DNA from: Candidatus Omnitrophota bacterium | Lineage (GTDB): Bacteria; Omnitrophota; Gorgyraeia; Zapsychrales; JANLHA01 | Direction of reading: 5' to 3' | Length of the DNA stretch: 64,000 bases | NCBI GenBank assembly: GCA_020632535.1 | Contig: JACKFJ010000001.1 | Span: 26,890-90,889, forward strand | Part shown: piece by piece, positions 1,066 through 53,198 of the stretch | How positions within the stretch are numbered: the first letter of the stretch is position 1 | Layout: each line of letters begins with the position of its first letter | Made by a program: the position numbers and the translations under genes | Notes under the pieces: generated by a model | What the model was told of the DNA's origin: nothing | Seen by the model: only the letters and a program-made list of their open reading frames with translations | Database searches by the model: none

Positions 1066-1641
1066 ATGACACGCGATGATATATATGATCATCTGGCTCA
1101 GGTTTATCTAGGCAAGAGAAGCAACCTAGAAAAAAAGAAAACGAAACAGCTGAATTCTTGGCTTGTTATTAACATCGTTATTACAGTTATTATTTTTGCG
1201 AGTTCGATTTATGGACTTACCGCGTTTTTGACACACAGAGGCGATGTTCTTCATAATAAAATTGTGTACGCCCTCAATAACGGCCCTATCCGTTTGAAAT
1301 ATAATCTTGAGCATCCATTCCCATCAGTTAAAACATTTAGTTTAAGTATTCCTAAGATGAATGTGGCCAAATACAAGGCTCTGCAGTTCTCTGTCCGCGC
1401 TTTGGACGAGGGAACGCCGGGTACTATTCGTATTGAACTTAAGAATCATAAAAATGAAATTGCGTTCGTGTTTGTTGAAAATGTTGATCGCGGCTGGAAG
1501 AATTATGAAATCAAGTTAGAGCGTTTTCAGCAGATATCAGATTGGTCAGATATCAATGAAATTTCTTTTGTCCTTGAGGCTTGGAATGCTCAGGATCGAA
1601 AAGGGATTATATTGATTGATGACGTAGCTTTTTCCAGCTAG
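1066..1641 (+). CDS. Single-pass membrane protein with a C-terminal beta-sandwich, possibly a carbohydrate-binding-module-like domain
   Basis: N-terminal cytoplasmic stretch, one TM helix (WLVINIVITVIIFASSIYGLTAFL), then a ~130-aa domain ending ...ISFVLEAWNAQDRKGIILIDDVAFSS, which resembles CBM11/CIA30-type sandwiches. The functional call is weak. Confidence 0.6.
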   Translation: MTRDDIYDHLAQVYLGKRSNLEKKKTKQLNSWLVINIVITVIIFASSIYGLTAFLTHRGDVLHNKIVYALNNGPIRLKYNLEHPFPSVKTFSLSIPKMNVAKYKALQFSVRALDEGTPGTIRIELKNHKNEIAFVFVENVDRGWKNYEIKLERFQQISDWSDINEISFVLEAWNAQDRKGIILIDDVAFSS

Positions 1642-1722
1642 TGCGCTATAGGCGCACTGTTGTACTGTGAACCACTATAAATAAACCAGATTACACAGTG
1701 CTAGCCAAGGGAGGTAAATGTT

Positions 1723-2886
1723 ATGCGAATTATTTCAATAGCAACTCAAAAGGGCGGATGTGGTAAGACCACGACAGCTATTAATTTAGCTGCAGCCTTG
1801 AGTGCCAATGGTAAGCGTACACTTCTCATTGATCTTGATCCTCAGGCACATGCCTCACTTGGACTCAATTTTGAAAATAAAGATAGCATATATAACGTTA
1901 TTTCAAAACTGACACCACGCAAACTTAATATCACGGATATTATTCGCAGCGCCGGTCCGAATTTTGATATTGTTCCGTCGAACATCCTTGTTGGGACACT
2001 GGAGCAGGAATTAGCTGATGAAATTGGCCGTGAATTAAAGCTGACGGATATTATTGCCAAAATTAAGGACAGTTATGATTATATTTTGATGGATTGCCCG
2101 CCGAGTCTTGGCTTTTTGACTGTTAATGCTTTACGTGCCTGCGATGAGGTTTTTATTCCTGTTGAGACGAGTCGTTTTTCTATGCAAGGGGTTGAGCATC
2201 TTTTGGATATTGTTAACTTAATTCGTGAGCGATTGAGTCATCCTGTTGAGTTTCGAATTTTGGTCACGATGTTTGATTCTCGATTACGGCATTCGTTTTC
2301 GATGCTTTCTCAGATTCGCGAAAAATTTTCTGGTGTGCTTTTTGACACAATTGTTCATACCAACGTTAAGCTTAAAGAATCTGTGGTCATGGGACAGACT
2401 GTCATTGATTATGATAAATATTGCCGCGGAGCTAAAGATTATTTTAGTCTCGCTAAGGAAATTATTTTCAAACAAGAAGTTCAGGAAAAAGTTTTGGAAC
2501 AACCAGCTGCGGCGGTTGTGCCACAGCGAGAGGCCGCGTCAGTTATTAAAGTTGAAGAGAATTTCCGTTTCTCCAACCGTATGCATTCGATGATGGAAGA
2601 AGGTCTCAATGGGATGCGTCTGACAACTTTTTCACTTGATGCCCCGGATGCTCGCTCGGTTTATGTGACGGGGAGTTTCAACGATTGGTCTTTGGATGAG
2701 AAGTGTCGTATGCGCTTGGAAAGTGGCCGCTGGCTTGTCGATGTTGGTCTTCGTCCGGGGGTTCATAAGTATCAATTTATCGTAGATGGTCGTTGGAGAG
2801 AAGATCCTGCCAACCCGCGGCAAGAGCGTAATTCTTTCGGGGATATCAATTCTTTGGTTGAGGTTCAGAATAATGGTAACGTATGA
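1723..2886 (+). CDS. ParA/MinD-family ATPase fused to a C-terminal CBM48 / AMPK-beta-type glycogen-binding domain
   Basis: Deviant Walker A at residues 9-16 (QKGGCGKTTT), ParA-like LLIDLDPQ and DCPPSLG motifs, and RBS GGGAGG upstream. The C-terminal ~85 aa (nt ~2617-2868) read TFSLDAPDARSVYVTGSFNDWS...GVHKYQFIVDGRWREDPANP...NSLVEV, a close match to the AMPK1_CBM/CBM48 pattern. Confidence 0.85.
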   Translation: MRIISIATQKGGCGKTTTAINLAAALSANGKRTLLIDLDPQAHASLGLNFENKDSIYNVISKLTPRKLNITDIIRSAGPNFDIVPSNILVGTLEQELADEIGRELKLTDIIAKIKDSYDYILMDCPPSLGFLTVNALRACDEVFIPVETSRFSMQGVEHLLDIVNLIRERLSHPVEFRILVTMFDSRLRHSFSMLSQIREKFSGVLFDTIVHTNVKLKESVVMGQTVIDYDKYCRGAKDYFSLAKEIIFKQEVQEKVLEQPAAAVVPQREAASVIKVEENFRFSNRMHSMMEEGLNGMRLTTFSLDAPDARSVYVTGSFNDWSLDEKCRMRLESGRWLVDVGLRPGVHKYQFIVDGRWREDPANPRQERNSFGDINSLVEVQNNGNV

Positions 2887-3199
2887 TGACGCCCACAAAG
2901 ATGATGTTCTTGAGGGCAAAGTCATAGCCATATTAGCGTATCTTTCGATTCTCTGCATTATTCCACTTCTGATTAAAAAAAATAATATTTTTGTCTTGGC
3001 GCACAGTAAGCAAGGTTTGGTTTTGTTTGTTGGGGAAGTTGCGGTTTTTATTTTGCACATTATTTTTGGAGTGTGGTTTTTGAAGTTAGGAATGTTTATT
3101 TTATTGACATTATCATTTGTGGGGCTTCTTGCCGTTCTTCGTGGTCAATATATCAAAATGCCTGTTGTGTCTTTAATCGCTGAAAAAATTACACTGTAA
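2873..3199 (+). CDS. Small multi-pass membrane protein (DUF4870-like)
   Basis: ATG at 2873 overlaps the ParA stop (2884-2886) by 14 nt. The ORF-track start at 2786 would lie deep inside the ParA gene. Motif ...KVIAILAYLSILCIIPLLIKKNNIFVLAHSKQGLVLF... resembles DUF4870. 2-3 TM helices. Confidence 0.6.
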   Translation: MVTYDDAHKDDVLEGKVIAILAYLSILCIIPLLIKKNNIFVLAHSKQGLVLFVGEVAVFILHIIFGVWFLKLGMFILLTLSFVGLLAVLRGQYIKMPVVSLIAEKITL

Positions 3200-3242
3200 G
3201 GAGTTTCTCATTTTAGATCAGTTAGTCAAAGCCCTGCAATCA

Positions 3243-3761
3243 ATGTTTAAGGGTCCAGTTCCGACGAAGAAAGTCAAGGCTAAGCGTTCTACTTCACAGT
3301 CTCGATACGTGGGACTTCCTGCCGGTAAGAAAAATAAAAAAACGAAAGCGAAAGAATCTTCTTCAAAGAGCGCAACGAAGCGTCGTCGTTTTGCAAAAAG
3401 TTATTTAAAATCGCCCGTTAAGAAGCCAATCAAAATTAAGACAAAAGCGATTAAATCGGTCGCTATCAATAAACTTAAGCGAAAAGAAAAAATTGTCAAA
3501 CCCGTGCCGGAATTTTATGTCGGGGAGATTACGCATTATTTTCAGAAAATTTCTGTAGTCGTGGTTAAGGTTTCTGAACATCCTATTCTTATCGGGGATT
3601 TGATCCACATTAAGGGAGGATCAACTGATTTTACGCAAAAAGTCGCGTCTTTGCAGGTTGAGAGCAAGGATGTCCGTTTCGCCCGTAAAGGGGAATTGGT
3701 TGGATTGCAAGTCATTGAAATTGCTAAGCCTGGCGATAAAGTTTATAAAATTAAGAAGTAG
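3243..3761 (+). CDS. Lys-rich basic N-terminal tail fused to an EF-Tu-domain-2-like beta-barrel (translation elongation factor-like protein)
   Basis: The first ~95 aa are K/R/S-rich and low-complexity (KKVKAKRSTSQ...KKNKKTKAKESSSKSATKRRR...). The C-terminal ~80 aa (GEITHYFQKISVVVVKVSEHPILIGDLIHIKGGSTDFTQKVASLQVESKDV..ARKGELVGLQV) match small EF-Tu D2-like barrel proteins as I recall them. Confidence 0.55.
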   Translation: MFKGPVPTKKVKAKRSTSQSRYVGLPAGKKNKKTKAKESSSKSATKRRRFAKSYLKSPVKKPIKIKTKAIKSVAINKLKRKEKIVKPVPEFYVGEITHYFQKISVVVVKVSEHPILIGDLIHIKGGSTDFTQKVASLQVESKDVRFARKGELVGLQVIEIAKPGDKVYKIKK

Positions 3762-9130: not shown

Positions 9131-10057
9131 ATGGCAAATCCAGATGAAAAGCAAAATTCAAATAAAGTCACTCGCCGAGGGCTTCTTTTAAAGGAAACGC
9201 GTGAACGTAAAGGACTGAGTATTGAAACCGTTCATGAAATGACTAAGATTCCTCTCGACGTTTTGCATGCCATTGAAGAGGGTTATACCGTTCGTATGGT
9301 GTCAGCGTATTACTTTAAGGGTTTTATCAAGATGTATGCGAAGTTTTTGGGATTGGATTTTACTTTGGTTTTAGATGAGCCGGTATCAAAAGTATCGTCC
9401 ACTCATGAGGATTCTGATGAAAATGTTTCTGTCGTTTCTGATCCGCAGCATCGTAAGTTTAATGAGTACATTACACGTCAGAATAAGAAGCAAACGATTG
9501 TTGGACTTATTATTCTTGGTATCTGTGTTGTTATTGCTTTAATCGTACTTGTGATTTGGATGAATAGACCGCAGTCGGGAAATCGTGTGCCGGTAGTTAA
9601 AGTTAAAAAAGAAGTACCAAAGAAGAAGTTTCTTGAAAATCAAATTGCGGATCGAAAAATGTTAGATAAAACAAAGAAGAAATCTGTTGCTGAAACGAAG
9701 CCTGAAGTACGCCCGGTGGCAGCACAAACAAGACAAGCCGCAGTTACAGAAGTTGTTGAGGATGTGGTTTCAGAGCGAAATAAGGAAGTATCGAATAAAA
9801 AAGTCAGTTTGACGATTAAATCGCGTGCTGCGGGCTGGTTGCAGGTCAAAGTTGATGGTAATTTGGTTTTTCAATCCACACTACGTGCTGGCGCGGCGGA
9901 ATCATGGCAGGGTGAAAAAAGTATTGAACTTTCAGGAAAAAATATTAATAATCTTGAGTTTGAAGTAAATGGTAAAGTTTTAGGGCAACTTGGTAAATCT
10001 GATCGAGGTGCTCGACGGGTTCTTGTTACAAGTGATGGTTTGTCGGTTAAGAAATAA
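9131..10057 (+). CDS. rodZ: RodZ-like cytoskeleton-associated protein (HTH + TM + DUF4115)
   Basis: N-terminal HTH (LLKETRERKGLSIETVHEMTKIPLDVLHAIEEG), a single TM helix (IVGLIILGICVVIALIVLVIW), a charged linker, and a C-terminal DUF4115-like beta domain (WLQVKVDGNLVFQSTLRAGAAESW). Confidence 0.7.
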   Translation: MANPDEKQNSNKVTRRGLLLKETRERKGLSIETVHEMTKIPLDVLHAIEEGYTVRMVSAYYFKGFIKMYAKFLGLDFTLVLDEPVSKVSSTHEDSDENVSVVSDPQHRKFNEYITRQNKKQTIVGLIILGICVVIALIVLVIWMNRPQSGNRVPVVKVKKEVPKKKFLENQIADRKMLDKTKKKSVAETKPEVRPVAAQTRQAAVTEVVEDVVSERNKEVSNKKVSLTIKSRAAGWLQVKVDGNLVFQSTLRAGAAESWQGEKSIELSGKNINNLEFEVNGKVLGQLGKSDRGARRVLVTSDGLSVKK

Positions 10058-10067
10058 TGATATTAAT

Positions 10068-10167
10068 ATTGCGAGCCTCGGAGACTTAGAGGTCTTTTTA
10101 GGACGAGCCCCGAAGGGGCGTGGCAATTTATCTGATTGCTTCGTTACCCTGCGGGGTTCCTTGCAAT
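10068..10167. repeat. Palindromic intergenic repeat, family B (ATTGC...hairpin...GCAAT units), two units
   Basis: Unit 1: ATTGCgag...GCCCCgaaGGGGCgtgGCAAT (10068-10127). Unit 2: GATTGCttcgttACCCtgcgGGGTtccttGCAAT (10134-10167). Unit 2 aligns with 39424-39458. Confidence 0.7.
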
Positions 10168-10190
10168 GGGGCGTCAATTGAAATGAAGAT

Positions 10191-11519
10191 ATGATAAAAA
10201 AACGAAAAGATATTGATCAGGTTGTCACAACAGCCGATTTTCACAAAGAGCGATTGTCGACAGGACAAAAAATCGGTGTGATTAACCTTGGTTGCGCGCG
10301 AAATCTTGTAGATTCGCAAGAAATTCTAGGGCGCCTTAAAAAGAGCGGGCATCGCATTGTTGATATGGCGCACGCGGATGTGGCGATTGTTAATACCTGT
10401 TCTTTCGTGGCTGATGCCAAAAAAGAGTCTATTGATACCATTATTGAGCTCTTAGAATTAAAAAAACAGGGTAAATTAAAGAAGGTTATTGTTGCAGGCT
10501 GTTTGGCGCAGCGCTATGGCAAGGAACTGGCGGAGGAATTGCAAGGCATCGATGCAATTGTAGGAACGCCATCATTCTTGAAGAATGATGTTGTGGATCA
10601 GGTTTATTTAACACCAAAGCATTTTGCTTACGTTAAGATTTGTGAGAGTTGTTATAATCGTTGCAGTTTTTGCGCCATTCCCGGTATTAAGGGTAAGTTT
10701 TCGTCCCGCAAGATTGAGTCAGTGCTCGAGGAAGTGAAACGTTTGGATAAGGCTGGTGTTAAAGAAATTAATTTGATTGGACAAGACATTACCGCTTATG
10801 GTGTTGATTTGTATCGTGAAAAATCTTTAGCGCGATTGCTGAGGGAAATGGTTAAGGTCACGGATAATATTCAATGGATTCGCCTTTTGTATGCTTTCCC
10901 GGCGCATGTGACCGATGATCTTATTGAGGTTATGGCTAATGAACCTAAGATTTGTAAATATATTGATATGCCATTACAGCATATTAGTGATAATTTGCTT
11001 TTAAGCATGAATCGTGGGATTACGACAGAAAAAACAAAAAAGTTAATTAATGATATGCGTCAAAGAATTCCTGCTGGCAGTTTACGCACAACATTTATTG
11101 TTGGGATGCCCGGTGAAACTGAAGAAAATTTTGAAGAGCTTCGGCAATATGTTCGTGAGACTCGTTTTGAAAAAATGGGTGTTTTTGTTTATTCGCGTGA
11201 AGAGGGAACTGAGGCTTTTGATATGGCTGGTCAAGTTTCAGAGCAAATTAAGAAAAAACGTTTGAACATTTTAATGAGGGAACAGCAAAGCATTTCTCAT
11301 GATGTGCAACAATCATTTGTTGGGCGTAAATTAAAAGTTCTTATCGACGAAAAGGAAGATGGCAGTGAAGGTATTTATTTGGGAAGGTCTGAATATGATG
11401 CTCCTGATGTCGATGGTAGTGTTTTTGTTCATACCAAGCGAGTTCTAAAGTCTGGTGATTTTGTTAACGTTAGGATCACGGACGCTCTTGAGTATGACTT
11501 AGTTGGGCATGAAGAATGA
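10191..11519 (+). CDS. rimO: Radical-SAM methylthiotransferase, most likely ribosomal protein S12 methylthiotransferase RimO
   Basis: UPF0004 N-domain (KIGVINLGCARNLVDSQEILGRL, RimO-like), radical SAM CESCYNRCSFCAIP, and a C-terminal TRAM domain. About 440 aa, as for RimO; a MiaB/MtaB paralog cannot be excluded. Confidence 0.7.
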   Translation: MIKKRKDIDQVVTTADFHKERLSTGQKIGVINLGCARNLVDSQEILGRLKKSGHRIVDMAHADVAIVNTCSFVADAKKESIDTIIELLELKKQGKLKKVIVAGCLAQRYGKELAEELQGIDAIVGTPSFLKNDVVDQVYLTPKHFAYVKICESCYNRCSFCAIPGIKGKFSSRKIESVLEEVKRLDKAGVKEINLIGQDITAYGVDLYREKSLARLLREMVKVTDNIQWIRLLYAFPAHVTDDLIEVMANEPKICKYIDMPLQHISDNLLLSMNRGITTEKTKKLINDMRQRIPAGSLRTTFIVGMPGETEENFEELRQYVRETRFEKMGVFVYSREEGTEAFDMAGQVSEQIKKKRLNILMREQQSISHDVQQSFVGRKLKVLIDEKEDGSEGIYLGRSEYDAPDVDGSVFVHTKRVLKSGDFVNVRITDALEYDLVGHEE

Positions 11520-16179: not shown

Positions 16180-16758
16180 ATGAGCGAAGAAAAAAAAGAA
16201 GAGAAACCTGCTGACGTTAAAGCTCCGGCTTCCGATCCTAAAGTGATTTTGCAAGCTTTAGATAAAAGTGCGGCAGCCGAAGTTGCTCAACCGGCTCCGG
16301 CCGCGCCACCAGAAGCCGTCGCTCCAAAAGAAGTTTCGCCACCGGCCTCAGCTGCACCGTCACCAGAATCTACCGCTCCAAAAGAAGTTCCACCACCGGC
16401 TCCAACTGCACCGTCACCAGAATCTGCCGCTCCAAAAGAAGTTCCACCACCGGCTCCAACTGCACCGTCAACAGAAGCCGTCGCTCCAAAAGAAGTTCCG
16501 CCACCGACTCCGACTGCGTCGCCACCCGAAGCTGTTACTCCTGCAGAAATTCCGTCGCCCGTTCCGGTTGTCCCGCCGTCGGCTATTACGCCTTCTGTTG
16601 TAGAATCGACACCGGCTGCTACTTTGGAAACGTCTACTTCTACACCTGAGTCCGTTGCTCCTTCGCCTGCGCCACCGCTGACAACTCCTTTACCCGGACC
16701 TCTTGTCACTGATGCCATGCGTCAGTTGGACGAACTATTAGCCCGTTTTCGTCAATGA
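16180..16758 (+). CDS. Proline-rich tandem-repeat protein (intrinsically disordered), hypothetical
   Basis: Four 18-aa units APKEV(P/S)PPA(P/S)(T/A)APSPES(A/T) plus degenerate flanking copies, with a short C-terminal amphipathic helix (TDAMRQLDELLARFRQ). No signal peptide or TM. The stop overlaps the next start (ATGA at 16755). Confidence 0.6.
   Translation: MSEEKKEEKPADVKAPASDPKVILQALDKSAAAEVAQPAPAAPPEAVAPKEVSPPASAAPSPESTAPKEVPPPAPTAPSPESAAPKEVPPPAPTAPSTEAVAPKEVPPPTPTASPPEAVTPAEIPSPVPVVPPSAITPSVVESTPAATLETSTSTPESVAPSPAPPLTTPLPGPLVTDAMRQLDELLARFRQ
16321..16536 (+). repeat. Tandem repeat, 4 x 54 bp, coding
   Basis: Units start at 16321, 16375, 16429 and 16483 (GCTCCAAAAGAAGTTCCACCACCGGCTCCAACTGCACCGTCACCAGAATCTGCC consensus). 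Locally GC-rich relative to the window. Confidence 0.9.
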
Positions 16759-19700
16759 CAACGCCATTTATGAAAAAGTTTTTACAAAGTAATTTTGGCA
16801 TCAGTCTGATGATTCTTGCCATAATATTCGGGTATTTTTATTTTGTTAGTTCGGTCAAAGCGGATCATTATCAGCTTTTTAATGTTAAAAAAACAATGAC
16901 TTGGGCGAAATCGGGAAACAGTCTGTATCGTACACATTCGCATAGGACAGTGGAAAATATCCTTTTGTCAGAAGATGGTTGGCGTGATTATATTTTGTCG
17001 TTTAAAGTTGCTAACCTCAAAGATTGTGGATTTGTTTTTGATTATGTTGACGCGCAAAATTATGGTTTTATATATTTGCGCAAAGATTCAAACTCTATTC
17101 TCAGCGGTAATCTGCAACAGGGTCAAACCCAGAATGTAAAGCTGCTCAAAGCCAATCTTGGTGATGTGATGGGTGTGAACGTCGAAAAAAAGGCAGGAAT
17201 TGTTTCTTTTACGGTCAATCAAAATCCTATCATTACAGTTCCTTCGCAAGTTTCTGACGGAAAAATCGGATTTCTCGTCAATGAAGCGAGTTATCCGCCG
17301 ATGCTTTTTCATCAGATTTCTATCAATGGAATTCTTGAATCCGGTCGAACATTGAGCCATGATGTAAACGCAAAATCGGAGAGCGGTTTATATGATATTC
17401 TTCGAAATTTCCTTCCTTTTTATTTGGCTTTCGTTGTTTTTGTGATCTGTTTTCCCATTCTCTTTCCTCGATTTCTTGAGACAATTTTCATTTTGAAGGT
17501 GTTTTCTTTTTTAAAATATGATTTCGTGCAAAATGTTGGCGCGGCATTGGTTCATCTGTTTTTAGCTGGGTGCTTTTTCTGGCCGTTTATATCTCGTGGG
17601 GAGGTGGCGGTTTTTAGTTATGACAATTTGGGGGAGATTTATCCACTTTTTTATTATGCCAAACATAATTTTATGAATATTTTGCAGGGTCACAGCCCTT
17701 GGTTGTGGAATTCGATCCTTCAAAATGGGTTTCCGTTTTATTCCAATCATTGGGACATGATTTACTATCCACTGAATTGGCTCGTGTTTTTGTTCTCTGA
17801 AAAAACGTTATTGACCGCATTGACATTGAAGTCTTTTGTGGAAGTGACTGCTTTAGGGATATTTGCTTACGGATTCTTTAGTTTGGAATTCAAAAATAAG
17901 CGCTGGGCACTTTTTTCGTCAGTGGTTTATCAGATGTGTTCGCTTTTGATTTTCACAATGGGCATTTTTCCTGCGACATCGACTTATTTTGCCATGACAT
18001 TTTACTTATATGTTCTTTGGTCTGTACCTCAAAGGCGAGCATTGACGAACTTTTTATTGTTAAGTTTTGCTGTCGTTTTGATTTTAACTTCCGCGAATGT
18101 GGCGTTTATTTTTTATGCATGTTTGGCATTGGCAGTCATTACGATTTATCGATTTGTTTCTGTCGGAAAGGAGGGGTCAAAACTTTTTGCTTTAACCGCA
18201 ATCGCTTGGCTTACGGGAACATTGATGTGTAGTGTGCGAATACTTTCCTGTTTGCAGGGTGTCACATCAAGTAATCGGATGGTAGAAAACTTTCATACTT
18301 TGCATGATCGCGCGTATATGGCGATACGGCTTTTTGTTCCTGAGATTGCAGGTTGGATGGGGCCCGACGCGCTTAATGTCTTGATGTCGCCAAATTTAAA
18401 GTTTATTTTTCAAAGCCTTGAATTGCCATCATCAAATCCGCAAAATAGTTTTTTTGTGTATTTTGGTGTTGTGCCGGCATTACTTCTTATCGTTAGTTTT
18501 TTGATCACGACAAAAGGCAAACATACTTTTTGGAAAATTTACAGTGTGATTGCTTTAGGGGTTGCTCTTTTGTGGCAGCCGATTTGGGGCGTTCTTAGCA
18601 TTCTGTGTTTGCCTCTTAATCACTACAGTTATCATGCGATCATTTTACCTGTTGGAATTTGTGCTTTGATTGGTTATACCGGAATGGCTTGGGAATTAAA
18701 AAGTTTTGAAAGTGTGAATTTTCGCCGTTATTTGACGGTGGCGATTGGGCTTGTGGTCGCGTATTTTTTTGTGTTTGTTACGTATTTGTTCCCATCATTA
18801 GCTTCGTTGACGCGAATTATTTTTCTCCTTATTGGTTTAGCCATCGCGATTTATTATGTTTTGCGCTATCGCAATGCGATTATTGGTGAAAAATTCCTAA
18901 GATTGATAGGTGGCGCGTTAAACGTTTTGATACTTGCGCTTTTGATTATTGTGACGATTATTCTGGTTGTTGCCCCTATTCCTAAAAAAGAGGATCTTGG
19001 CACGACAATGGTATTGCCGTTTTTATGGATTGCGGCTGCCAGCGCTTTGATGATAAGTTTTTATTATCGAAGAAGAGAAAATTCAAATTTGAAAGTTGCG
19101 TGCGGATTGTCTTTGATTCCGCCGGTTTTAGCCTTATTGGCTAGCGTCGGGTTTGTGATTTCTCCTCTTGGATCTTCGTTGTTGGGATGGGAGCAATCAC
19201 TTAGAGTTTATAGCATCGATATTCTTGTCGGATATATTCGTTTGCTGTTGCTTTTGCAAATAGGCATATTGGGATTTAGTGGTATTCAGAAAAAAATATT
19301 TTCCGTACAGGCGGTTTTTGCGGTGCTCTTGATTTTTACGATGATGGATTTGGTTGTTTTTAACGCGAGATTTAACAATATTACGGCGCCATTTTATTAT
19401 AAGAAAGCTTTTTACCCAAAAGATTTTACTTATAAGGATCTCAGTCCTGATTTTAGAAAACAAATGGATTTGGTCAATTATCGTGCGAGTCATTTGCATC
19501 ATCAGGATTTTAATGCCAACAAAAATTTAGTTTTCGATGTCCCAAGCTATAGCGGCACGGTCGGCTATATGACAAAGCGATTTTCTAAACTTCTTACGTC
19601 ATTTGGTTACCCCGATGGGATTTATATGCTTTATCCAGAAGATTCGACGGAGAATGCGCGTTTTCAGGATTTATCAGCTATTCGTTATGTTTTTGAAAAG

Positions 19701-20198
19701 AACGGACAGTTGACACAGCGACCAAGCGCTTTGGGTCGATTAAATCTCGTTTTTTCGGGGGAAGTGATTGAGGATGATGACAAGATGCTTTCGCGCTTAC
19801 AGGAAGAGTCTTTTGATCCGCATAAGTCTGTACTTTTTTCTCAACCTTTGTCCGCCTTAAAGAATCTGAACAAGGATTCGATCATTGTTCCGATTACGAA
19901 AGCTACGCCTAATCGTATTGAAAGTCGTTTTGATTCCGCGGCGCCGAGTTATATGCTCTTTAGTGAATCGTACGATGAAGGGTGGAAAGCTTTTGTCGAC
20001 AATGTTCAAGTCCCTGTTTTACGCGCTAATTACAATTTTATGGCCTGTGTGATTCTCACAGCAGGGAGCCATGAAATTCGTTTTGTATATGACCCACCGC
20101 AGTATAAACGCAATCTTCTTATAAGCCTCTTTGGATTGACGATTTTTGTATTTGCCGCATTAGTTGCTTTTTGGAGACGACTTTTTGCCGTAAAATAG
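16755..20198 (+). CDS. Large polytopic membrane protein, YfhO-like (GT-C-type glycosyltransferase candidate) with an N-terminal lectin/LamG-like insert
   Basis: More than 20 predicted TM helices. The C-terminal extracytoplasmic domain ends ...SESYDEGWKAFVDNVQVPVLRANYNFMACVILTAGSHEIRFVYDPPQYK + final TM, as in YfhO-family proteins. A ~190-aa beta-rich domain lies between TM1 and TM2. Confidence 0.55.
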   Translation: MTTPFMKKFLQSNFGISLMILAIIFGYFYFVSSVKADHYQLFNVKKTMTWAKSGNSLYRTHSHRTVENILLSEDGWRDYILSFKVANLKDCGFVFDYVDAQNYGFIYLRKDSNSILSGNLQQGQTQNVKLLKANLGDVMGVNVEKKAGIVSFTVNQNPIITVPSQVSDGKIGFLVNEASYPPMLFHQISINGILESGRTLSHDVNAKSESGLYDILRNFLPFYLAFVVFVICFPILFPRFLETIFILKVFSFLKYDFVQNVGAALVHLFLAGCFFWPFISRGEVAVFSYDNLGEIYPLFYYAKHNFMNILQGHSPWLWNSILQNGFPFYSNHWDMIYYPLNWLVFLFSEKTLLTALTLKSFVEVTALGIFAYGFFSLEFKNKRWALFSSVVYQMCSLLIFTMGIFPATSTYFAMTFYLYVLWSVPQRRALTNFLLLSFAVVLILTSANVAFIFYACLALAVITIYRFVSVGKEGSKLFALTAIAWLTGTLMCSVRILSCLQGVTSSNRMVENFHTLHDRAYMAIRLFVPEIAGWMGPDALNVLMSPNLKFIFQSLELPSSNPQNSFFVYFGVVPALLLIVSFLITTKGKHTFWKIYSVIALGVALLWQPIWGVLSILCLPLNHYSYHAIILPVGICALIGYTGMAWELKSFESVNFRRYLTVAIGLVVAYFFVFVTYLFPSLASLTRIIFLLIGLAIAIYYVLRYRNAIIGEKFLRLIGGALNVLILALLIIVTIILVVAPIPKKEDLGTTMVLPFLWIAAASALMISFYYRRRENSNLKVACGLSLIPPVLALLASVGFVISPLGSSLLGWEQSLRVYSIDILVGYIRLLLLLQIGILGFSGIQKKIFSVQAVFAVLLIFTMMDLVVFNARFNNITAPFYYKKAFYPKDFTYKDLSPDFRKQMDLVNYRASHLHHQDFNANKNLVFDVPSYSGTVGYMTKRFSKLLTSFGYPDGIYMLYPEDSTENARFQDLSAIRYVFEKNGQLTQRPSALGRLNLVFSGEVIEDDDKMLSRLQEESFDPHKSVLFSQPLSALKNLNKDSIIVPITKATPNRIESRFDSAAPSYMLFSESYDEGWKAFVDNVQVPVLRANYNFMACVILTAGSHEIRFVYDPPQYKRNLLISLFGLTIFVFAALVAFWRRLFAVK

Positions 20199-20224
20199 CC
20201 GCTTACACCGTGCTTTTTCACAAT

Positions 20225-20253
20225 TTGCTTTAATTGACGTCGAGTGGTATACT
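20225..20253 (+). promoter_or_regulatory. Candidate sigma70 promoter (with extended -10) for the 20340 gene
   Basis: TTGCTT (20225-20230), 17 nt, TATACT (20248-20253), preceded by TGG (TGn extended -10). Confidence 0.45.
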
Positions 20254-20339
20254 TTCACCTGTTCATTGTGTTAGTGTTGGTCAGTCAAATTTAGGACAAA
20301 GCTTGCATGCAAAGTCTCAACTCGTATAAAAAAATATCT

Positions 20340-23300
20340 ATGATTAAAAAAGTCATTTCTAGTTTGATGCTGGTACCTTTTGTTGTGTCAATGATCACGC
20401 CAGTAGGGGCGCAAATGTTGCCCGTCTCGGGAACTCGCGTCGGTTTAACCGCTGGCCTCGCCACGGATGGGCTCGGCATTCCCTCGGACATCGCTTCGCG
20501 GTCCTCGGTCAGCTTCCAACCGCCTGTGCTTTTGGGTCTCAAAATTCATCCTGAGAATCCGCTATTGTTTGACTTTATCGTTGATCAAGGGGAAAGCAGA
20601 CTTTCAGAGGACGATCTTAAAGCTGAAACTGAAAAGCTCGTAAAATATTTTCTTGCCGCGTTAACTATTCCTGATAAAGAAGTTTGGGTCAATTTGTCGC
20701 CTTATGAAAAAGACCGCATTATTCCTGATGTTTTGGGTCAGACGACAATGGGTAAGACAATGCTTGAGCAAGATTATCTTTTAAAGCAATTAGCGTCTTC
20801 GCTTACTAATCCCGAAGAAAAGTTAGGGCAGGAGTTTTGGGGTAAGGTGAAGGCACAAGTTGGTGGAAGTGATGTGCCAATGAATACGTTTAATAAAGTT
20901 TGGATTGTCCCGCAAAAAGCGGAAGTGTTAGAAAGTCAGGGTATTGTTTTGGTTGGTGAAAAGCGCTTAAAAGTTATGATGGCGGATGACTACACTGCGA
21001 TGAACATGTCATCCCCGCAATCTCAATCTCTGTCATCCCCGAATGCTCAATCTTTGTCATCCCCGCAATCTTTAAGCGGGGATCCACTGGCAAAGAATGG
21101 ATTCCCGATTAAAGATTTCGGGAATGACAAAAATATTAAAGCATTCGGGAATGATAACAGCAACGTTTCCTCCCAAGTCTTTCGCGACGTGATCCTTCCT
21201 AACATCGAAAAGGAAATCAATGAAGGCAAGAATTTTGCTGATGTTCGCCAGATTTATAATTCCGTCATTTTAGCCGCGTGGTATAAAAAAGCACTCAAAG
21301 AAAGTTTGTTGGGTAAAGTTTACACTGACAAAGGTAAGGTCGCGGGCGTTGAAACCGATGACAAGGATATGAAGCAGAGAATTTATGAGCAATATTTGTC
21401 CGCGTTTAAGAAGGGCGTGTATAACCTTATTAAGGAAGAGTCTGATGTGATAAGTGGTGACATTATTCCTCGTAAGTATTTTTCGGGAGGGTTGAATTTG
21501 TCGGGCGATCAATTGGAGCGTAAAGTTGTTGCTTTGGCAACTATTGAACAAAATTTAAACGCAAGTTCCGGGATTATTGTTGCGACTGTCCAAGGCGTTG
21601 AAAGCGGGGCGTCGGAGCAAGGAGCGGTACAAAGTCAAGTTTCTTCAAGCGCGGTGCAAAATGTGAATTCAACGCAAGCTGGACGGGTTCAGGAAATTGT
21701 TACTTGGTTAAAAAATAAGATGAGAGATTTATTCGGAGAAAAGAGTCTTGTCGAAGTGAAGTTTTCTTCTGATTTGCTTAATCGCTTGCAAGAAATAAGA
21801 GCAGTTAATAACGAAGCTCCTTTTGCTGGTGATATTAATGAGGATACTTTACGAAAAGTTGTTAATTTTCTTAATGGGCATTTTGATGATGCACTATATG
21901 GACAATCAAAGGTTTTATACTATCACAAGGGCTATCATGAACTATTTGCACTGAAAGCAAATGATTTTCTTCCGAATTCGGATGATAGTTTGACACAAAT
22001 TGCTGCGAAAGAAATCGCTTTAAACAATCGTCTTGATGCCGCTGTTGTGATTCTTCGTGATTTATTGAATTTCGAACCATGGACACTTGGGGAACAAGCA
22101 ATGTCTGAAGGGCAAAAGGTTTCTAAATTGGTCGTTTTGGGATTTAAAGTCAATGGACAGTGGGCGAGATATTCTGAATTAAAGCCTGAGTTGACGAAGT
22201 TAGGAGTAATCATTGCCTCAAGTGCGGTCAACAGCGACGGCAAGACAATGGCGGATGTGATTTTAGAAAATAGCGCTTTATTAGAAGGATCACAAAGCGC
22301 GCAATTGCATTTGCTTTGGTTGCTCCAAGAGGATCCATTGATACAATCCCAAAAGCAATCTGAAGATAGGTATAAAGATATTGCGATTTCAGCGGAAAGT
22401 AAATTTAGCGCGATGACCGATGAGCAATTGGGGCTGGAGTATTCGCGATTTGTCGGCCGAAGCCAACCATTTTATCAACCAGCCTTTGTGAAGAATGAGA
22501 ACAAGGGTATTGTCGGATTTCTTGATGTTCTTTCTTTGAAAGATACTAATTATGGTATGACTAAACTGACTAATTTTTTAGATGATTTTGTCGGTAACTT
22601 TAGAAATGTTAGGCCGGGTGCATTGGCAGTAGCGAATGATAATATTCTTGCTGTCTATATCGAAGCAAAAGCATGGATGCGCGAGGTTCTCTCTCGGTCA
22701 GGCGTGACAGCAGAAAGAGATGCAACATTTGAAGATTTAATTTCTGGTTTGCGGCAAAATAGTGCCCGTTCGACAAGTCAGCCAGCTCCAGAAAGTTATT
22801 GGCAATTTGAATTTGCGATTAATGCGTTATTGCAAGATGTCGCGCCTTATCCAGATGCTTTTAGGGAAGATATTTTTACAATCTTTATGAGCTCACTTGT
22901 TGAATACGAGAGGGTTGAGGAAACAAGATGGGTTGAGAGTATAACATTAGAAAATGGTAACAAAGCTTGGGTACTTAGCGACAATGGAGTACATGAAGAT
23001 TTGTTGCAGGATTATGATCGCTTTGCAAAGTTCTTTACTGCCGTTGGTGTTACAAAGGAGAAAGGTCTTAATAGACAAGTTTTGACATTGTCAGAGGATT
23101 TTATAAGTAAAATTAATGCTATTAAAGCTAATGCTTCTAGCGCGATTGAAGAAGCAGATACTGTCTCGGCGCCGATTGTCGCTCCGGGTGGTATTGACTT
23201 TGACCCAACGAATATGAATTTACAAATTAAGCGTGATGGTAAGGGGGTTCCTTTGCCGATTCCGCAGCAGAACTTTGAACAAATCAATATTCAAGGTCTT

Positions 23301-23417
23301 TCGCCTGTGATCATTAACATCATGCCGGTTAATGCGCAAACTTTACCGATATTTTTAGGACAAGCTTCCAAAGATCCTGCAATTGATCCGAAAGTAGCTT
23401 TGAGTACCGCGAGTTAA
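20340..23417 (+). CDS. Large secreted protein of unknown function (~1025 aa)
   Basis: The ATG at 20340 gives a Sec signal peptide, MIKKVISSLMLVPFVVSMITPVGAQ; the ORF track starts 11 codons earlier. No catalytic motif recognised. There is a conserved-looking C-terminal block APGGIDFDPTNMNLQIKRDGKGVPLPIPQQNFEQINIQGLSPVIINIMPV. The gene contains an in-frame palindromic repeat cluster (21008-21155). Confidence 0.7.
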   Translation: MIKKVISSLMLVPFVVSMITPVGAQMLPVSGTRVGLTAGLATDGLGIPSDIASRSSVSFQPPVLLGLKIHPENPLLFDFIVDQGESRLSEDDLKAETEKLVKYFLAALTIPDKEVWVNLSPYEKDRIIPDVLGQTTMGKTMLEQDYLLKQLASSLTNPEEKLGQEFWGKVKAQVGGSDVPMNTFNKVWIVPQKAEVLESQGIVLVGEKRLKVMMADDYTAMNMSSPQSQSLSSPNAQSLSSPQSLSGDPLAKNGFPIKDFGNDKNIKAFGNDNSNVSSQVFRDVILPNIEKEINEGKNFADVRQIYNSVILAAWYKKALKESLLGKVYTDKGKVAGVETDDKDMKQRIYEQYLSAFKKGVYNLIKEESDVISGDIIPRKYFSGGLNLSGDQLERKVVALATIEQNLNASSGIIVATVQGVESGASEQGAVQSQVSSSAVQNVNSTQAGRVQEIVTWLKNKMRDLFGEKSLVEVKFSSDLLNRLQEIRAVNNEAPFAGDINEDTLRKVVNFLNGHFDDALYGQSKVLYYHKGYHELFALKANDFLPNSDDSLTQIAAKEIALNNRLDAAVVILRDLLNFEPWTLGEQAMSEGQKVSKLVVLGFKVNGQWARYSELKPELTKLGVIIASSAVNSDGKTMADVILENSALLEGSQSAQLHLLWLLQEDPLIQSQKQSEDRYKDIAISAESKFSAMTDEQLGLEYSRFVGRSQPFYQPAFVKNENKGIVGFLDVLSLKDTNYGMTKLTNFLDDFVGNFRNVRPGALAVANDNILAVYIEAKAWMREVLSRSGVTAERDATFEDLISGLRQNSARSTSQPAPESYWQFEFAINALLQDVAPYPDAFREDIFTIFMSSLVEYERVEETRWVESITLENGNKAWVLSDNGVHEDLLQDYDRFAKFFTAVGVTKEKGLNRQVLTLSEDFISKINAIKANASSAIEEADTVSAPIVAPGGIDFDPTNMNLQIKRDGKGVPLPIPQQNFEQINIQGLSPVIINIMPVNAQTLPIFLGQASKDPAIDPKVALSTAS
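21008..21155 (+). repeat. Intragenic cluster of short palindromic repeat units, read through in frame
   Basis: There are three direct 24-nt copies (21008, 21032, 21056). A 30-nt hairpin unit GTCATCCCCGCAATCTTTAAGCGGGGATCC (21056-21085) has an inverted, covarying copy GGATTCCCGATTAAAGATTTCGGGAATGAC (21099-21128). GCATTCGGGAATGAT (21141-21155) is inverted relative to GTCATCCCCGAATGC (21032-21046). Confidence 0.8.
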
Positions 23418-33828: not shown

Positions 33829-35323
33829 TTCCTTGAAGTTCAATCAAAAAGCCCAACAAGTCATTGAATATCTGCTCATTATGGCAGCTGTGGTCGCCGG
33901 TGTTTTGGGTATTGCCGGACCTTCTGGGCCGATGCGTAATGCTGTTGAAAAATCTTTAAATAAAGCTGTTGAAACAATCTATCAAGGTTACACATGGCGA
34001 TTAGGTTCGCCGGGTCCCTGTTCTGCGTCATGCGGAATAGGTACGGCTTCGCGTGGTGTATCTTGTCAACGTGAAGACGGCGTTAATGTGGCTGATTCAT
34101 TTTGCGAAGAAGCCAGTGGTGTCACTCGGGCATCTTTAGAAACGGTTGCATGTGATTCTGGAGTTTGCGGAAGCTATGCTTGGGTAGGCGGTGGATTTGG
34201 TGCATGCAGTGCTCTCTGTGGAGGCGGAACACAAACACAAACAGTTATCTGTCGTGATTCAGGGGGAGCAACTGTTGCAGATACATTTTGTGCGAGCGCT
34301 GGGCCTAAGCCAGTCAGCCAGCCTTGTAATACGGGGGCTTGTTATGTTTGGCAATCGGGTGGAGCATGTACAACAACATGTACCGTAGCTTGTGGTATTG
34401 GAAGTTGTTCTCAAGACGTTAGTTGTAAAGACACCGTGTCGGGGACAACGACTGCCGATAGCAACTGTCCTTCCGGAACAAAGCCATCTACTACGATACC
34501 GTGTAATACATCATTAACGTGTGGTTTTCAATGGCAGGTGGGTAGTTGGAGTGCTTGTACTGTGGCGTGTGGAGGTGGAACGAGAACCAGAACAGTGCAG
34601 TGTATTCGTCAGTCTGATGGAACCGCTGTTGCCGATACCAATTGCGATGCAGGATCAAAGCCATCTTCCAGCGGCACGTGCAATACCGTTTCATGTAATC
34701 ATTGGGAATTGACGAGTTCTTGGGGACCTTGCAATAGTGTTTGTGGGTCAGGAACACAGGAAATTATTGTAGAGTGTAAGAATTTGCAAGGAATTGTATT
34801 AGCTGATGATCAATGCGATATTGCGACAAAGCCCAGTAGTACGAGGGCGTGTCCAAGCTTACCGTCTTGTGGATATAGTTGGGGAAGTAGCTTGTGGGGG
34901 TCATGCAGTGTTACATGCGGAACGGGAACGCAAAATCGCACGGTATTTTGTACAAGAACTTTTGATGGCACAAATGTCGATGTTTCTTATTGTCAGGCGG
35001 CAGATCCTAGCGGGGAACCAGCGGCAAGTCAGTCTTGTACAATAGAATGTTATTCTTGGGTTGCTACGTCGTGGGGAGATTGTAGCACGACATGTGGAAC
35101 GGGAACACAATCAAGAAATTATGAGTGTCGTGACGGTAATGGAAATGGTTCTGTAGTCGGCAATAATTTTTGTATTAATGCTCTTGGAGCGCCACCGACA
35201 ACGACTCAAAATTGTAGTGATACATCATCATGTTGTGGAAATGGGACGTGTGATAATTTGCAATCGGTTGGTTATGTCGAGACTTGCAATACCTGTGTGA
35301 ATGATTGCGGTGTTTGTCCGACT
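33829..35323 (+). repeat. Direct duplication, copy 1 (~1.5 kb; 5' part of the TSR gene)
   Basis: Collinear with 36103-37597 at a constant offset of 2274 nt, with no indels seen. My hand alignment found roughly 40-50 substitutions (~97% identity), decaying sharply after ~35255. Confidence 0.9.
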
Positions 35324-35914
35324 TGTTCTGATGGGATACAAAATCAAGGCGAAACCGGTGTTGATTGCGGCGGGCCAAATTGTTCTGCTTGTCCGACATG
35401 TTCTGATGGCATACGGAATCAATCGGAATCAGGAGTTGATTGCGGTGGTCCCTGCCCAGCTTGCGTGACATGTTGGGATGGGATACGAAATCAGGGAGAA
35501 GCTGGTGTCGATTGCGGTGGGCCGTGTCCTGCACCTTGTGCAACATGTGGAGATTTTGTGCAAAACCAAGGTGAAACCGGCGTTGATTGCGGTGGTCCTT
35601 GTCCCGCTTGTCCGACATGTTACGACGGGGTAAAAAATCAAGGAGAAACTGGTGTCGATTGTGGGGGGACGTGTGTAGCTTGCCCTCCTTTACAAATAAC
35701 CGGTTGTGGCTGCGGTAGCTGCCCTGCTGGGGCAATTCCTACAGTTGGTACATTTCCTTTTGGAAGTTTAGGTATGAGGTGTAATAATCCTGGTGGTGGG
35801 TTGAATGGTTATAGTCAATGGCCTGGACTTGGAATATGGATACCCGATACTGCCACACCGTTGTGTTCGAGTCAGTGGTTTGGAGGAGATATGTGCTGGT
35901 TGTTCGCTCCTTAA
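33833..35914 (+). CDS. Prepilin-like (Flp/class III signal) secreted protein with 7 ADAMTS-type thrombospondin type-1 repeats and 5 C-terminal Cys-rich GVDCGG repeats (paralog 1)
   Basis: TTG start with AGGAGA 7 nt upstream, and an in-frame stop at 33815. The N-terminus is MKFNQKA/QQVIEYLLIMAAVVAGVLGIAG. It carries seven ~57-60-aa units of the type FQWQVGSWSACTVACGGGTRTRTVQCIRQSDGTAVADTNCDAGSKPSSSGTCNTVSC, and is extremely Cys-rich. Confidence 0.85.
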   Translation: MKFNQKAQQVIEYLLIMAAVVAGVLGIAGPSGPMRNAVEKSLNKAVETIYQGYTWRLGSPGPCSASCGIGTASRGVSCQREDGVNVADSFCEEASGVTRASLETVACDSGVCGSYAWVGGGFGACSALCGGGTQTQTVICRDSGGATVADTFCASAGPKPVSQPCNTGACYVWQSGGACTTTCTVACGIGSCSQDVSCKDTVSGTTTADSNCPSGTKPSTTIPCNTSLTCGFQWQVGSWSACTVACGGGTRTRTVQCIRQSDGTAVADTNCDAGSKPSSSGTCNTVSCNHWELTSSWGPCNSVCGSGTQEIIVECKNLQGIVLADDQCDIATKPSSTRACPSLPSCGYSWGSSLWGSCSVTCGTGTQNRTVFCTRTFDGTNVDVSYCQAADPSGEPAASQSCTIECYSWVATSWGDCSTTCGTGTQSRNYECRDGNGNGSVVGNNFCINALGAPPTTTQNCSDTSSCCGNGTCDNLQSVGYVETCNTCVNDCGVCPTCSDGIQNQGETGVDCGGPNCSACPTCSDGIRNQSESGVDCGGPCPACVTCWDGIRNQGEAGVDCGGPCPAPCATCGDFVQNQGETGVDCGGPCPACPTCYDGVKNQGETGVDCGGTCVACPPLQITGCGCGSCPAGAIPTVGTFPFGSLGMRCNNPGGGLNGYSQWPGLGIWIPDTATPLCSSQWFGGDMCWLFAP
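35324..35689 (+). repeat. Five tandem coding repeats of 24-25 codons (C-x-D-G-[IV]-x-N-Q-[GS]-E-x-G-V-D-C-G-G-P-C-P-A-C)
   Basis: The units are CSDGIQNQGETGVDCGGPNCSACPT, CSDGIRNQSESGVDCGGPCPACVT, CWDGIRNQGEAGVDCGGPCPAPCAT, CGDFVQNQGETGVDCGGPCPACPT and CYDGVKNQGETGVDCGGTCVACPP. They occur only in paralog 1. Confidence 0.9.
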
Positions 35915-48575: not shown

Positions 48576-48577
48576 GA

Positions 48578-50610: not shown

Positions 50611-50625
50611 GGCATTTTAAAAATC

Positions 50626-51684: not shown

Positions 51685-52325
51685 TGGCAAAATTAAAGAC
51701 GGTGATCTTTGGCGCGGGTGGGTTTGGGCGTGAAGTGTTACCGTTTGCGCGTTTGAATAAAAAGTTAGCGGTTATTCGTTTCGTGGATATTAAACCACAG
51801 GCCGATAAGATTGATGGTATTCCGGTTATGGAGGAAAAAGATTTTTGGGCGAAATATAAAAAGTTAGGGGTTAAAGTTGTTGTGGTTGCTGTCGGAGAGC
51901 CGCAAATTCGTGAAAAGATCTTTCGAGATGCTCGTAAAGCAAAGTTGCAATTGCCTTCGATCATTCACCCTAGCGCGGTTTTGGCAGAAGACTTTGTTTG
52001 CGGCGAGGGTACGATTATTTATCCTCTGGTTACGGTGCAAATACGTGGTCGTGTTGGAGAGGGTGTGCTTTTGAATGCCGGCTGTACTTTGGGGCATGAC
52101 ACAATCATTGAGAATTTTGTGAACATCAATCCCGGTGTTAATATTGCCGGCAATGTTCGTATTCATAAATTTGCATATTTGGGGATTGGCAGTACAGTTG
52201 TCGAAAAAATTACCATTGGTGAAAATACGACCATTGGTGCGGGCGCGGTTGTGATTGATCATATGCCCGCGCACGTTATTTCCGTCGGTATTCCAGCAAA
52301 AATTATTCGTAATCTCAAAAGTTAG
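51684..52325 (+). CDS. NeuD/PglD-family hexapeptide-repeat sugar N-acetyltransferase
   Basis: N-terminal Rossmann-like GAGGFGREV, a left-handed beta-helix repeat region, and C-terminal ...VGIPAKIIR. Confidence 0.75.
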   Translation: MAKLKTVIFGAGGFGREVLPFARLNKKLAVIRFVDIKPQADKIDGIPVMEEKDFWAKYKKLGVKVVVVAVGEPQIREKIFRDARKAKLQLPSIIHPSAVLAEDFVCGEGTIIYPLVTVQIRGRVGEGVLLNAGCTLGHDTIIENFVNINPGVNIAGNVRIHKFAYLGIGSTVVEKITIGENTTIGAGAVVIDHMPAHVISVGIPAKIIRNLKS

Positions 52326-52333
52326 GATTTATT

Positions 52334-53194: not shown

Positions 53195-53198
53195 CGTT

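Follow-up and report, generated by a model that had tools for sequence, protein, structure and literature searches.

What would a ParA-type ATPase do with a glycogen-binding domain fused to its C-terminus? The question is raised by a gene at positions 1723–2886 (+ strand) of a 64,000-nucleotide stretch of contig JACKFJ010000001.1 from a Candidatus Omnitrophota bacterium. We call the whole stretch the window, and coordinates below refer to it unless another locus is named. ParA/MinD ATPases are a general bacterial means of placing large cytoplasmic objects. To our knowledge, every known cargo of these ATPases has been found with a separate adaptor protein, and we know of no ParA system assigned to glycogen. 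An earlier note on this DNA, made from the letters alone, read the gene product as a positioning ATPase joined to a carbohydrate-binding module of family 48 (CBM48) and suggested that the cargo adaptor is built into the ATPase. Our analysis leads us to propose, at a probability of roughly 0.45, that the protein links glycogen particles to the nucleoid as a tether or distributor gated by ATP, and that it carries its cargo adaptor in cis. The proposal draws on domain identities, residue conservation, conservation of the architecture and orphan status, from which we infer ligand binding and cellular role.

The gene is an intact open reading frame (ORF) of 387 codons plus stop, preceded by a Shine–Dalgarno sequence read directly from the DNA (AGGGAGG, 1708–1714, + strand, 8 nt 5′ of the ATG). 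Its product is 100% identical to an NCBI entry from a metagenome-assembled genome (MAG), an 'AAA family ATPase' of Candidatus Omnitrophica bacterium. Database labels say only this or, at JGI for relatives, 'chromosome partitioning protein'. Because the NCBIfam equivalogs for ParA, RepA, MinD and BcsQ all matched below threshold only, the protein falls into no named equivalog. It carries no signal peptide and begins directly with the P-loop strand at its very N-terminus, and it is therefore predicted to be cytoplasmic. Pfam divides it into AAA_31 and AMPK1_CBM. The three-part layout that the earlier note had described, a complete deviant-Walker-A ATPase, a linker and an AMPK-beta/CBM48 domain with sugar-binding residues, is upheld by Pfam, PDB searches and alignment. 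All of the motifs it had quoted (KGGCGKTT, DLDPQ, DCPPSLG, GSFNDW, VDGRW and NSFGDINS) are present in the protein.

Such a fusion might be a frameshift or an assembly artefact joining two genes. We reject this explanation, since the same architecture recurs in hundreds of independent assemblies. Both domains are present in all 120 best homologues, which are 61–100% identical to the window protein and come from many independent assemblies, several on contigs of 0.3–3.4 Mb. We then drew on an exhaustive search of 1.84 billion representatives of 50%-identity clusters, in which the Omnitrophota clade forms a single cluster. Among the next 147 representatives after the top match, 128 combine the ATPase with the CBM in a single chain, 126 of them being essentially full-length. 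These 126 diverse family members share 30–46% identity with the window protein and are the denominator of all residue frequencies given below. A scan of GTDB with one genome per species returned at least 592 relatives; we examined the best 80 loci, all from MAGs, and nearly all of them align over the full length of the fusion. Carriers include Omnitrophota, Planctomycetota (Phycisphaerae, Tepidisphaerales, Sedimentisphaerales and others), Myxococcota, Desulfobacterota, 'delta proteobacteria', Zixibacteria, Eisenbacteria, Rokubacteria, Gemmatimonadales, Margulisbacteria, Auribacter, Spirochaetaceae and Bacteriovoracaceae. Names returned by the other searches added Nitrospirota and confirmed Planctomycetota. 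By this survey of its spread, which the earlier note had called for, the ParA–CBM fusion appears to be an old and widespread family present in about 12 phyla. One apparent natural split, a 257-aa ParA followed by a stand-alone 112-aa CBM (L005), was dismissed. It lies on a nanopore contig (ERZ26871208 contig_245298_np1212) where pnp, ftsK and phoU are likewise split by frameshifts, and sequencing frameshifts there mimic a split gene pair.

The N-terminal part of the protein (1723–2472, + strand; residues 1–250) is a Soj-type ParA ATPase domain. Pfam matched AAA_31 over residues 1–173 (E 3e-54) and CbiA (E 1e-17), with weaker matches to BcsQ, MipZ and NifH; the BcsQ family PF06564 nevertheless scored significantly, with 45.8 bits where the cut-off is 21.3. 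A PDB sequence search with the N-terminal 257 residues returned ParA 8ray first (E 4e-49), followed by the Soj proteins of Helicobacter pylori (HpSoj) and Thermus thermophilus (TtSoj). We modelled the whole fusion with AlphaFold2 (AF2). A first run on an alignment confined to Omnitrophota gave a mediocre predicted local distance difference test (pLDDT) score of 69, and a deeper alignment of 75 sequences raised it to 87. The model consists of a Soj-like alpha/beta domain (residues 1–259), a disordered segment (267–283), a short helix (285–294) and a beta-sandwich (299–381). Its top Foldseek match is the model of Bacillus subtilis Soj (BsSoj), 9a6n, followed by the solved structures of ParA (8ray) and TtSoj (1wcv). 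Template-modelling (TM) scores normalized to the target are 0.91–0.93 with root-mean-square deviations of 1.5–1.8 Å for these three, and span 0.87–0.93 when H. pylori Soj is included. McdA, MinD, BcsQ and FlhG rank lower. Over the structural alignment, the domain is ~37% identical to Soj-type structures.

The catalytic residues of this domain are preserved throughout the family. The deviant Walker A motif with its signature lysine (QKGGCGKTT, residues 9–17) contains K10 and K15, both invariant in 126 of 126 members, and D37, D39, Q41 and D124 of the Walker A′ and Walker B motifs (DxDPQ, here DLDPQ, and DCPP) are equally invariant. The cysteine of KGGCGKTT is shared by 119 members and by most of their nearest CBM-less relatives, whereas the Soj/ParA sequences that we compared have valine at this position. 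In HpSoj, the basic residues for non-specific DNA binding are K199, K227, K230 and K247. In the fusion, positions that may contact DNA are recognizable by alignment with a BsSoj sequence whose numbering matched four residues named in the published work. Nucleoid binding by B. subtilis Soj needs R189 and R218 (PMC6393308). On this alignment alone, R187 corresponds to R189 (Arg in 108 members) and K216 to R218 (Lys or Arg in 98), while R199 aligns with BsSoj K201 and is basic (Lys or Arg) in 75. A MinD-type C-terminal amphipathic membrane-targeting helix is absent; the fusion ends in the CBM beta-sandwich, with a median tail of 0 aa. Separately, a 468-aa protein in our representative library (P0326) carries a bactofilin domain (PF04519) fused N-terminally to a close relative of the ATPase, without a CBM. 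Its ATPase is 45% identical to that of the window and also has KGGCGKT, making it another ParA with a scaffold or adaptor in cis.

The C-terminal domain (2617–2874, + strand; residues 299–384) is a CBM48 of the AMPK-beta glycogen-binding type. The earlier note had asked for profile confirmation of this assignment, and AMPK1_CBM (PF16561) matched residues 309–384 with an E value of 8e-16 and 58.5 bits, above its gathering score of 26.8. The sister profile CBM_48 (PF02922) stayed below its gathering score on the window protein (18.2 versus 22.4), whereas many orthologues carry a precomputed PF02922 match. When the C-terminal 99 residues were searched against the PDB, the AMPK beta1 CBM was best (1z0n, E 7e-11), with AMPK beta2 alongside and the CBM48 domains of GlgB, pullulanase, SEX4 and LSF1 also matched. 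AF2 places the beta-sandwich at residues 299–381 with pLDDT values of 88–96. In the structure of AMPK beta1 with cyclodextrin, W100 and W133 stack against the sugar, K126 and N150 form hydrogen bonds with it, and L146 pierces it (PMC9788615). A phmmer alignment maps these residues onto a putative site in the window protein formed by W322 (for W100; Trp in 126 of 126 members), Q351 (K126; Arg or Lys in 123 members, Gln in Omnitrophota), W358 (W133; Trp in 122), F372 (L146; Phe, Tyr or Leu in 98) and N376 (N150; Asn or Asp in 115). AMPK needs this Trp pair to bind glycogen (PMC9788615), and plant PTST needs the corresponding residues to bind starch; the CBM48 of PTST is an adaptor through which another protein is recruited to starch granules (PMC4339375). 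The AMPK beta CBM is a glycogen sensor that inhibits the kinase (PMC9788615). In the fusion family, the CBM almost always forms the extreme C-terminus.

Could this domain have lost carbohydrate binding and now serve, as an E-set fold, in protein–protein interaction? The sub-threshold PF02922 score and the change of the K126 position to Gln in Omnitrophota are compatible with such a loss, as is a property of the AMPK beta CBM itself, which also contacts the kinase domain. Yet both stacking Trp residues, the Asn and the Gly/Ser of the loop are near-invariant among members that share just 30–45% identity, as a retained sugar site predicts, and this CBM type also has secreted relatives with multiple repeats. 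We consider the loss of binding very improbable. The multi-repeat relatives are giant proteins that carry the same CBM subtype in 4–18 tandem copies (P0187, with 1812 aa and 18 repeats, P0202, P0204, P0323 and P0316). Because four of these five have signal-peptide-like N-termini, the module appears to be used extracellularly too. At two Desulfobacterota or delta-proteobacterial loci, a stand-alone CBM48 protein of ~100 aa is encoded less than ~2 kb from the ParA–CBM gene (L041, 6337–6642, − strand; L060, 6264–6551, + strand). A search for CBM-only homologues returned mostly fragments on short contigs and carried little information on other architectures.

Between the two domains lies a flexible linker of ~48 aa (2473–2616, + strand; residues 251–298), which includes a short conserved helix (285–294) shortly ahead of the CBM. 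It is predicted to be disordered, with pLDDT below 50 at residues 267–283. Across the family, the linker is rich in Ala, Glu, Pro and Ser and ranges from 2 to 357 aa, with a median of 46. Sequence identity falls sharply here: within Omnitrophota it is 79% for the ATPase, 22% for the linker and 75% for the CBM, and family-wide the corresponding values are 40%, 12% and 36%. Given the similar identities of the two domains and the divergence of what joins them, the ATPase and the CBM appear to be under comparable purifying selection and connected by a free tether.

At the loci that we examined, the ATPase is a true orphan: no parB or parS is adjacent, and in Planctomycetota the fusion forms a monocistronic unit among unrelated genes. 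The window is chromosomal, holding rpsO, pnp, ftsK, rodZ, metH, a NeuB/DegT-type sugar cluster and other housekeeping genes. None of its 35 scanned ORFs is a parB, and no parS occurs in it within 3 mismatches. Nor did a search with B. subtilis Spo0J as the query, run with no positive control, find a ParB homologue among the ORFs called at the 80 species loci, and at 5 further loci read through precomputed Pfam annotation parB was likewise not adjacent. The lack of a neighbouring parB that the earlier note had reported thus extends from the window to all 80 species loci. The single ParB_N-domain gene that we saw lies ~5 kb from the fusion, on the opposite strand, at a locus on a Sedimentisphaerales contig (L006). 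At this locus, and at no other, the fusion sits ~6 kb upstream of dnaN–dciA–gyrB (10001–11275 and 17702–21275), possibly near the origin.

These findings bear on the idea that the fusion is simply the cell's chromosome-partition Soj, served by a distal ParB/parS and fitted with an acquired glucan-binding appendage. The ATPase is certainly Soj-like (8ray at E 4e-49, ~37% identity over the structural alignment) and keeps the Soj DNA-binding residues, relatives are labelled 'chromosome partitioning protein' at JGI, and the one Planctomycetota copy near dnaN–gyrB would suit such a role. Chromosomal parA and parB normally form an operon, however, whereas none of the 80 species loci or the 5 annotated ones has parB next to the fusion; the ParB_N gene at L006 is distant and oppositely oriented, and the window has no parS. 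The family and its closest CBM-less relatives also share KGGCGKT, as opposed to the KGGVGKT of the compared Soj/ParA proteins. Furthermore, the fusion is found in Myxococcota and Desulfobacterota, phyla with canonical ParABS, and in these it would therefore be an extra ParA copy. We regard a partitioning Soj with an appendage as quite improbable.

The tether that we propose would work as follows. ATP-bound ATPase domains would form the usual sandwich dimer and bind nucleoid DNA non-specifically, as Soj does, while the flexible linker would suspend one CBM48 domain per subunit. Each CBM would hold alpha-1,4/1,6-glucan (glycogen) chains through its AMPK-beta-type Trp–Trp–Asn site. Multiple bivalent dimers could thereby anchor glycogen particles to the chromosome reversibly and under the control of ATP, so that granules would be distributed along the nucleoid and inherited by both daughters. 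Tethering, or hitch-hiking, seems more likely than a ParB-like ratchet or a positioning motor, because no partner is conserved family-wide and an adaptor in cis does not by itself supply ATPase stimulation. Omnitrophota MAGs have been reported to encode glycogen synthesis (PMC8542988), which fits the model. Escherichia coli has no such protein. Its glycogen, left unpositioned, gathers into condensates at the old pole and skews the position of the nucleoid, cell division and inheritance (PMC12706056); such a tether would solve this problem. The notion of an adaptor built into the ATPase, put forward in the earlier note, has been strengthened by the spread of the family, by the equal constraint on the two domains and by the co-conservation of Soj-type DNA-binding and glucan-binding residues, whereas its function is still something that we infer. 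We suggest tentatively that the fusion may be the first dedicated ATP-driven, one-polypeptide ParA machine for the spatial organization and inheritance of a polysaccharide storage granule.

The main rival to this model is an AMPK-like glycogen sensor, in which a glycogen-bound CBM sequesters the ParA ATPase or alters it allosterically, coupling some other ParA output, such as the timing of chromosome segregation, division-site placement or nucleoid organization, to carbon reserves. It fits the kinship of the CBM, which is nearest to a kinase-inhibiting glycogen sensor, and that of the ATPase domain, which is nearest to chromosomal Soj/ParA; it also fits the lack of a cargo-specific partner conserved across the family. 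What speaks against it is the linker, which at 2–357 aa is too variable, and in general too long and disordered, to favour tight allosteric coupling. No regulated target is identifiable either, since neither parB nor min nor any division gene recurs consistently next to the fusion. On balance we think sensing rather unlikely, and continue to favour tethering.

In Omnitrophota, the fusion gene has close companions. Immediately upstream, a gene at 1066–1641 (+ strand) encodes a 191-aa single-pass membrane protein made up of a cytoplasmic N-terminal peptide, a poly-Lys stretch, a transmembrane helix and an extracytoplasmic beta-rich domain. It occupies position −1 on the same strand in all 21 Omnitrophota-type loci, with gaps mostly of 12–40 nt. 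Its most conserved segment, judged from 22 sequences, is the cytoplasmic peptide (MxK/RxEIYxHLAxVYL) followed by poly-Lys, encoded at 1066–1155 in the window. This short basic peptide resembles the ParA-activating peptides of ParB- and McdB-type partners. Domain hints for the 191-aa protein are all non-significant: Pfam MAM reached 20.3 bits against a cut-off of 26.4, and a family profile touched two beta-sandwich chains in the PDB at E~1. Downstream, a gene call at 2873–3199 (+ strand) specifies a 108-aa small membrane protein like DUF4870/MamF_MmsF; the 14-nt overlap with the fusion gene that had been claimed for it is real (2873–2886). Its orthologues match PF09685 weakly, and the window copy has no Pfam match. 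The gene stands at +1 in 13 Omnitrophota loci and is missing from others, for example L003. Next comes a gene for a 172-aa polybasic protein (3243–3761, + strand) with a histone-H1-like N-terminal tail (37% Lys plus Arg) and a conserved C-terminal domain of ~85 aa, found at +1 or +2 in 18 of the 21 loci. The Lys plus Arg fraction of the tail is 0.32–0.56 across aligned proteins of this type, and the C-terminal domain of one orthologue weakly matches EF-Tu domain 2 (PF03144). Neither the 191-aa nor the 172-aa protein of the window has a significant match in Pfam, NCBIfam or the PDB.

Upstream of these genes, an AlgE-like porin gene is syntenic in Omnitrophota. It is followed at its 3′ side by a strong hairpin resembling an intrinsic terminator (805–840, + strand; 16-bp stem with 8 GC pairs, then a T-tract), which parts the porin gene from the putative 1066–3761 operon. 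The 191-aa gene, standing first, the fusion gene, the DUF4870-like gene and the polybasic gene thus probably form an operon in Omnitrophota, and the 191-aa protein is a candidate lineage-specific partner. More speculatively, either its basic N-terminal peptide or the polybasic 172-aa protein might activate the ATPase in this phylum. All of these neighbours are absent from fusion loci in every other phylum examined, so they are not universal partners. The earlier note had seen no evidence beyond adjacency for any of them; within Omnitrophota this understates a strong synteny, while beyond that phylum it stands, as no wider link emerged.

Other clades have recurrent same-strand neighbours of their own. 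Proteins of 297 aa (L055, 9094–9987), 498 aa (L061, 2744–4240), 214 aa (L036, 10165–10809) and 266 aa (L013, 1076–1876) each recur at 5 loci, in different clades, and have no Pfam domain. The 266-aa protein seems to be a longer relative of the 191-aa membrane protein of Omnitrophota. The 297-aa protein, encoded at +1 in delta-proteobacterial loci, had struck us by eye as a degenerate P-loop ATPase, an impression that the HMM (hidden Markov model) search did not support.

The Omnitrophota arrangement invites a further explanation, in which the fusion serves the envelope together with the 191-aa and DUF4870-like proteins, positioning or regulating a membrane or polysaccharide complex as BcsQ does; the CBM would then bind a glucan product or primer and not storage granules. 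The constant presence of the 191-aa gene at short distance, its conserved, activator-like basic peptide, the syntenic AlgE-like porin gene and the significant PF06564 score all accord with this. Against these stand the terminator that separates the porin gene, the lack of a significant match for the extracytoplasmic domain of the 191-aa protein, and Soj matches that are far stronger than those to BcsQ. Above all, genes that are missing outside Omnitrophota cannot define the function of the family. We find such an envelope role in Omnitrophota decidedly unlikely.

Several observations weigh against a glycogen–nucleoid tether and temper the probability that we assign to it. The strongly conserved Omnitrophota neighbours are membrane proteins, which point partly to the envelope over the nucleoid. 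A cis adaptor offers no obvious source of the cargo-localized ATPase stimulation that drives known ParA positioning. Within the putative sugar site, the Omnitrophota proteins carry Gln where AMPK beta1 has K126. The Foldseek list for the fusion model was dominated by ParA structures matching the ATPase domain, so the structural matches bear on that domain. Glycogen genes are not close by: no glg gene is found among the 35 window ORFs scanned, and a regular-expression scan of low sensitivity for GlgA, GlgC, GlgP, GH13 and GH77 across 1.17 Mb of flanking sequence (all loci plus the window) gave one dubious match.

How, then, does the fusion compare with known systems? With type Ib Soj/ParA proteins (BsSoj; TtSoj, 1WCV/2BEK; HpSoj, 6IUB; ParA, 8RAY) it has in common the fold, the deviant Walker A with its signature lysine, DxDPQ, DCPP and the basic DNA-binding positions. 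It differs from them in having no parB/parS alongside, in its Walker A Cys and in ~135 extra C-terminal residues that form the disordered linker and CBM48. McdA/McdB, which positions carboxysomes, offers a functional parallel: like McdA, which is a fold relative, the fusion is a ParA-family ATPase unlinked to parB that presumably uses the nucleoid as its matrix and acts on a cytoplasmic, non-DNA cargo. The McdA adaptor, however, is a protein of its own, usually encoded next to the ATPase, and stimulates the ATPase as well. The fusion, by contrast, carries its cargo module in cis and has no neighbour conserved across the family that could be such an adaptor, the Omnitrophota candidates being linked to it by synteny, and the cargo is a protein shell for McdAB as against a presumed polysaccharide for the fusion. 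The signature lysine, atypical in cyanobacterial McdA, is present in the fusion.

The glucan-binding half has eukaryotic counterparts in the AMPK beta CBM, PTST, SEX4 and LSF1, which share its domain family and Trp–Trp–Asn site. In these, CBM48 is joined to a kinase scaffold, a coiled coil or a phosphatase, whereas in the bacterial cytoplasmic fusion it is joined to a ParA ATPase; the Omnitrophota clade further departs from AMPK beta at the K126 position. The concept of a tether is itself familiar from PhaF and PhaM, where one bifunctional protein binds both the polyhydroxyalkanoate (PHA) granule and DNA, so that granules reach both daughters. Those proteins bind DNA passively in a histone-like manner, have no ATPase switch and hold a polyester granule through a phasin domain; they have no sequence relationship to the fusion, which would add an ATP switch. 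BcsQ, acting in cellulose secretion, is likewise a ParA/MinD-fold ATPase tied to polysaccharide biology, and Pfam CBP_BcsQ is above its cut-off for the fusion. Its similarity is much weaker than that of Soj, it has no CBM, and it acts at the membrane with BcsR and BcsE. A full-text literature search, which covered subscription journals only in part, found nothing that ties a ParA-family ATPase to glycogen or to CBM48, in keeping with the statement in the earlier note that no described system of this kind was known.

The window holds further features of interest in their own right. Two adjacent paralogous ORFs at 33833–35914 and 36107–38407 (+ strand) encode proteins of 693 and 766 aa with five thrombospondin type-1 repeats each (PF19030 TSP1_ADAMTS, E 3e-53 and 1e-58); these are adhesion repeats of an animal type, here encoded by an Omnitrophota genome. 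A second pair of consecutive ORFs, both very large, at 16755–20198 and 20307–23417 (+ strand; 1147 and 1036 aa) matches no Pfam family at E ≤ 1e-5. A nonulosonic-acid-like sugar cluster spans 47532–55953 (+ strand) and comprises a Polysacc_synt_2 dehydratase, an RmlD-like reductase, a DegT aminotransferase, a NeuB synthase, a methyltransferase and a class IV aminotransferase. Downstream of it, past an ORF at 56122–56922 that lay outside our scan, is a gene of the aminoglycoside 3-N-acetyltransferase family (56926–57777).

What is new here is a ParA positioning ATPase with a presumptive new cargo and a cis-fused adaptor. The polar condensation of glycogen in E. coli (PMC12706056) makes it a concrete question whether glycogen is under active management in other bacteria, and the family is a directly testable candidate, with a simple ATPase–tether–CBM48 design and clear residues to mutate (W322 and W358, K15, D39, R187 and K216). 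Its carriers belong to environmentally important, mostly uncultured phyla. If the proposal is true, a ParA could work without a separate adaptor, and this naturally cis-fused one would inform both the minimal requirements of ParA positioning and its engineering. Glycogen would then be added to the cargoes of ParA systems, alongside chromosomes, plasmids and carboxysomes.

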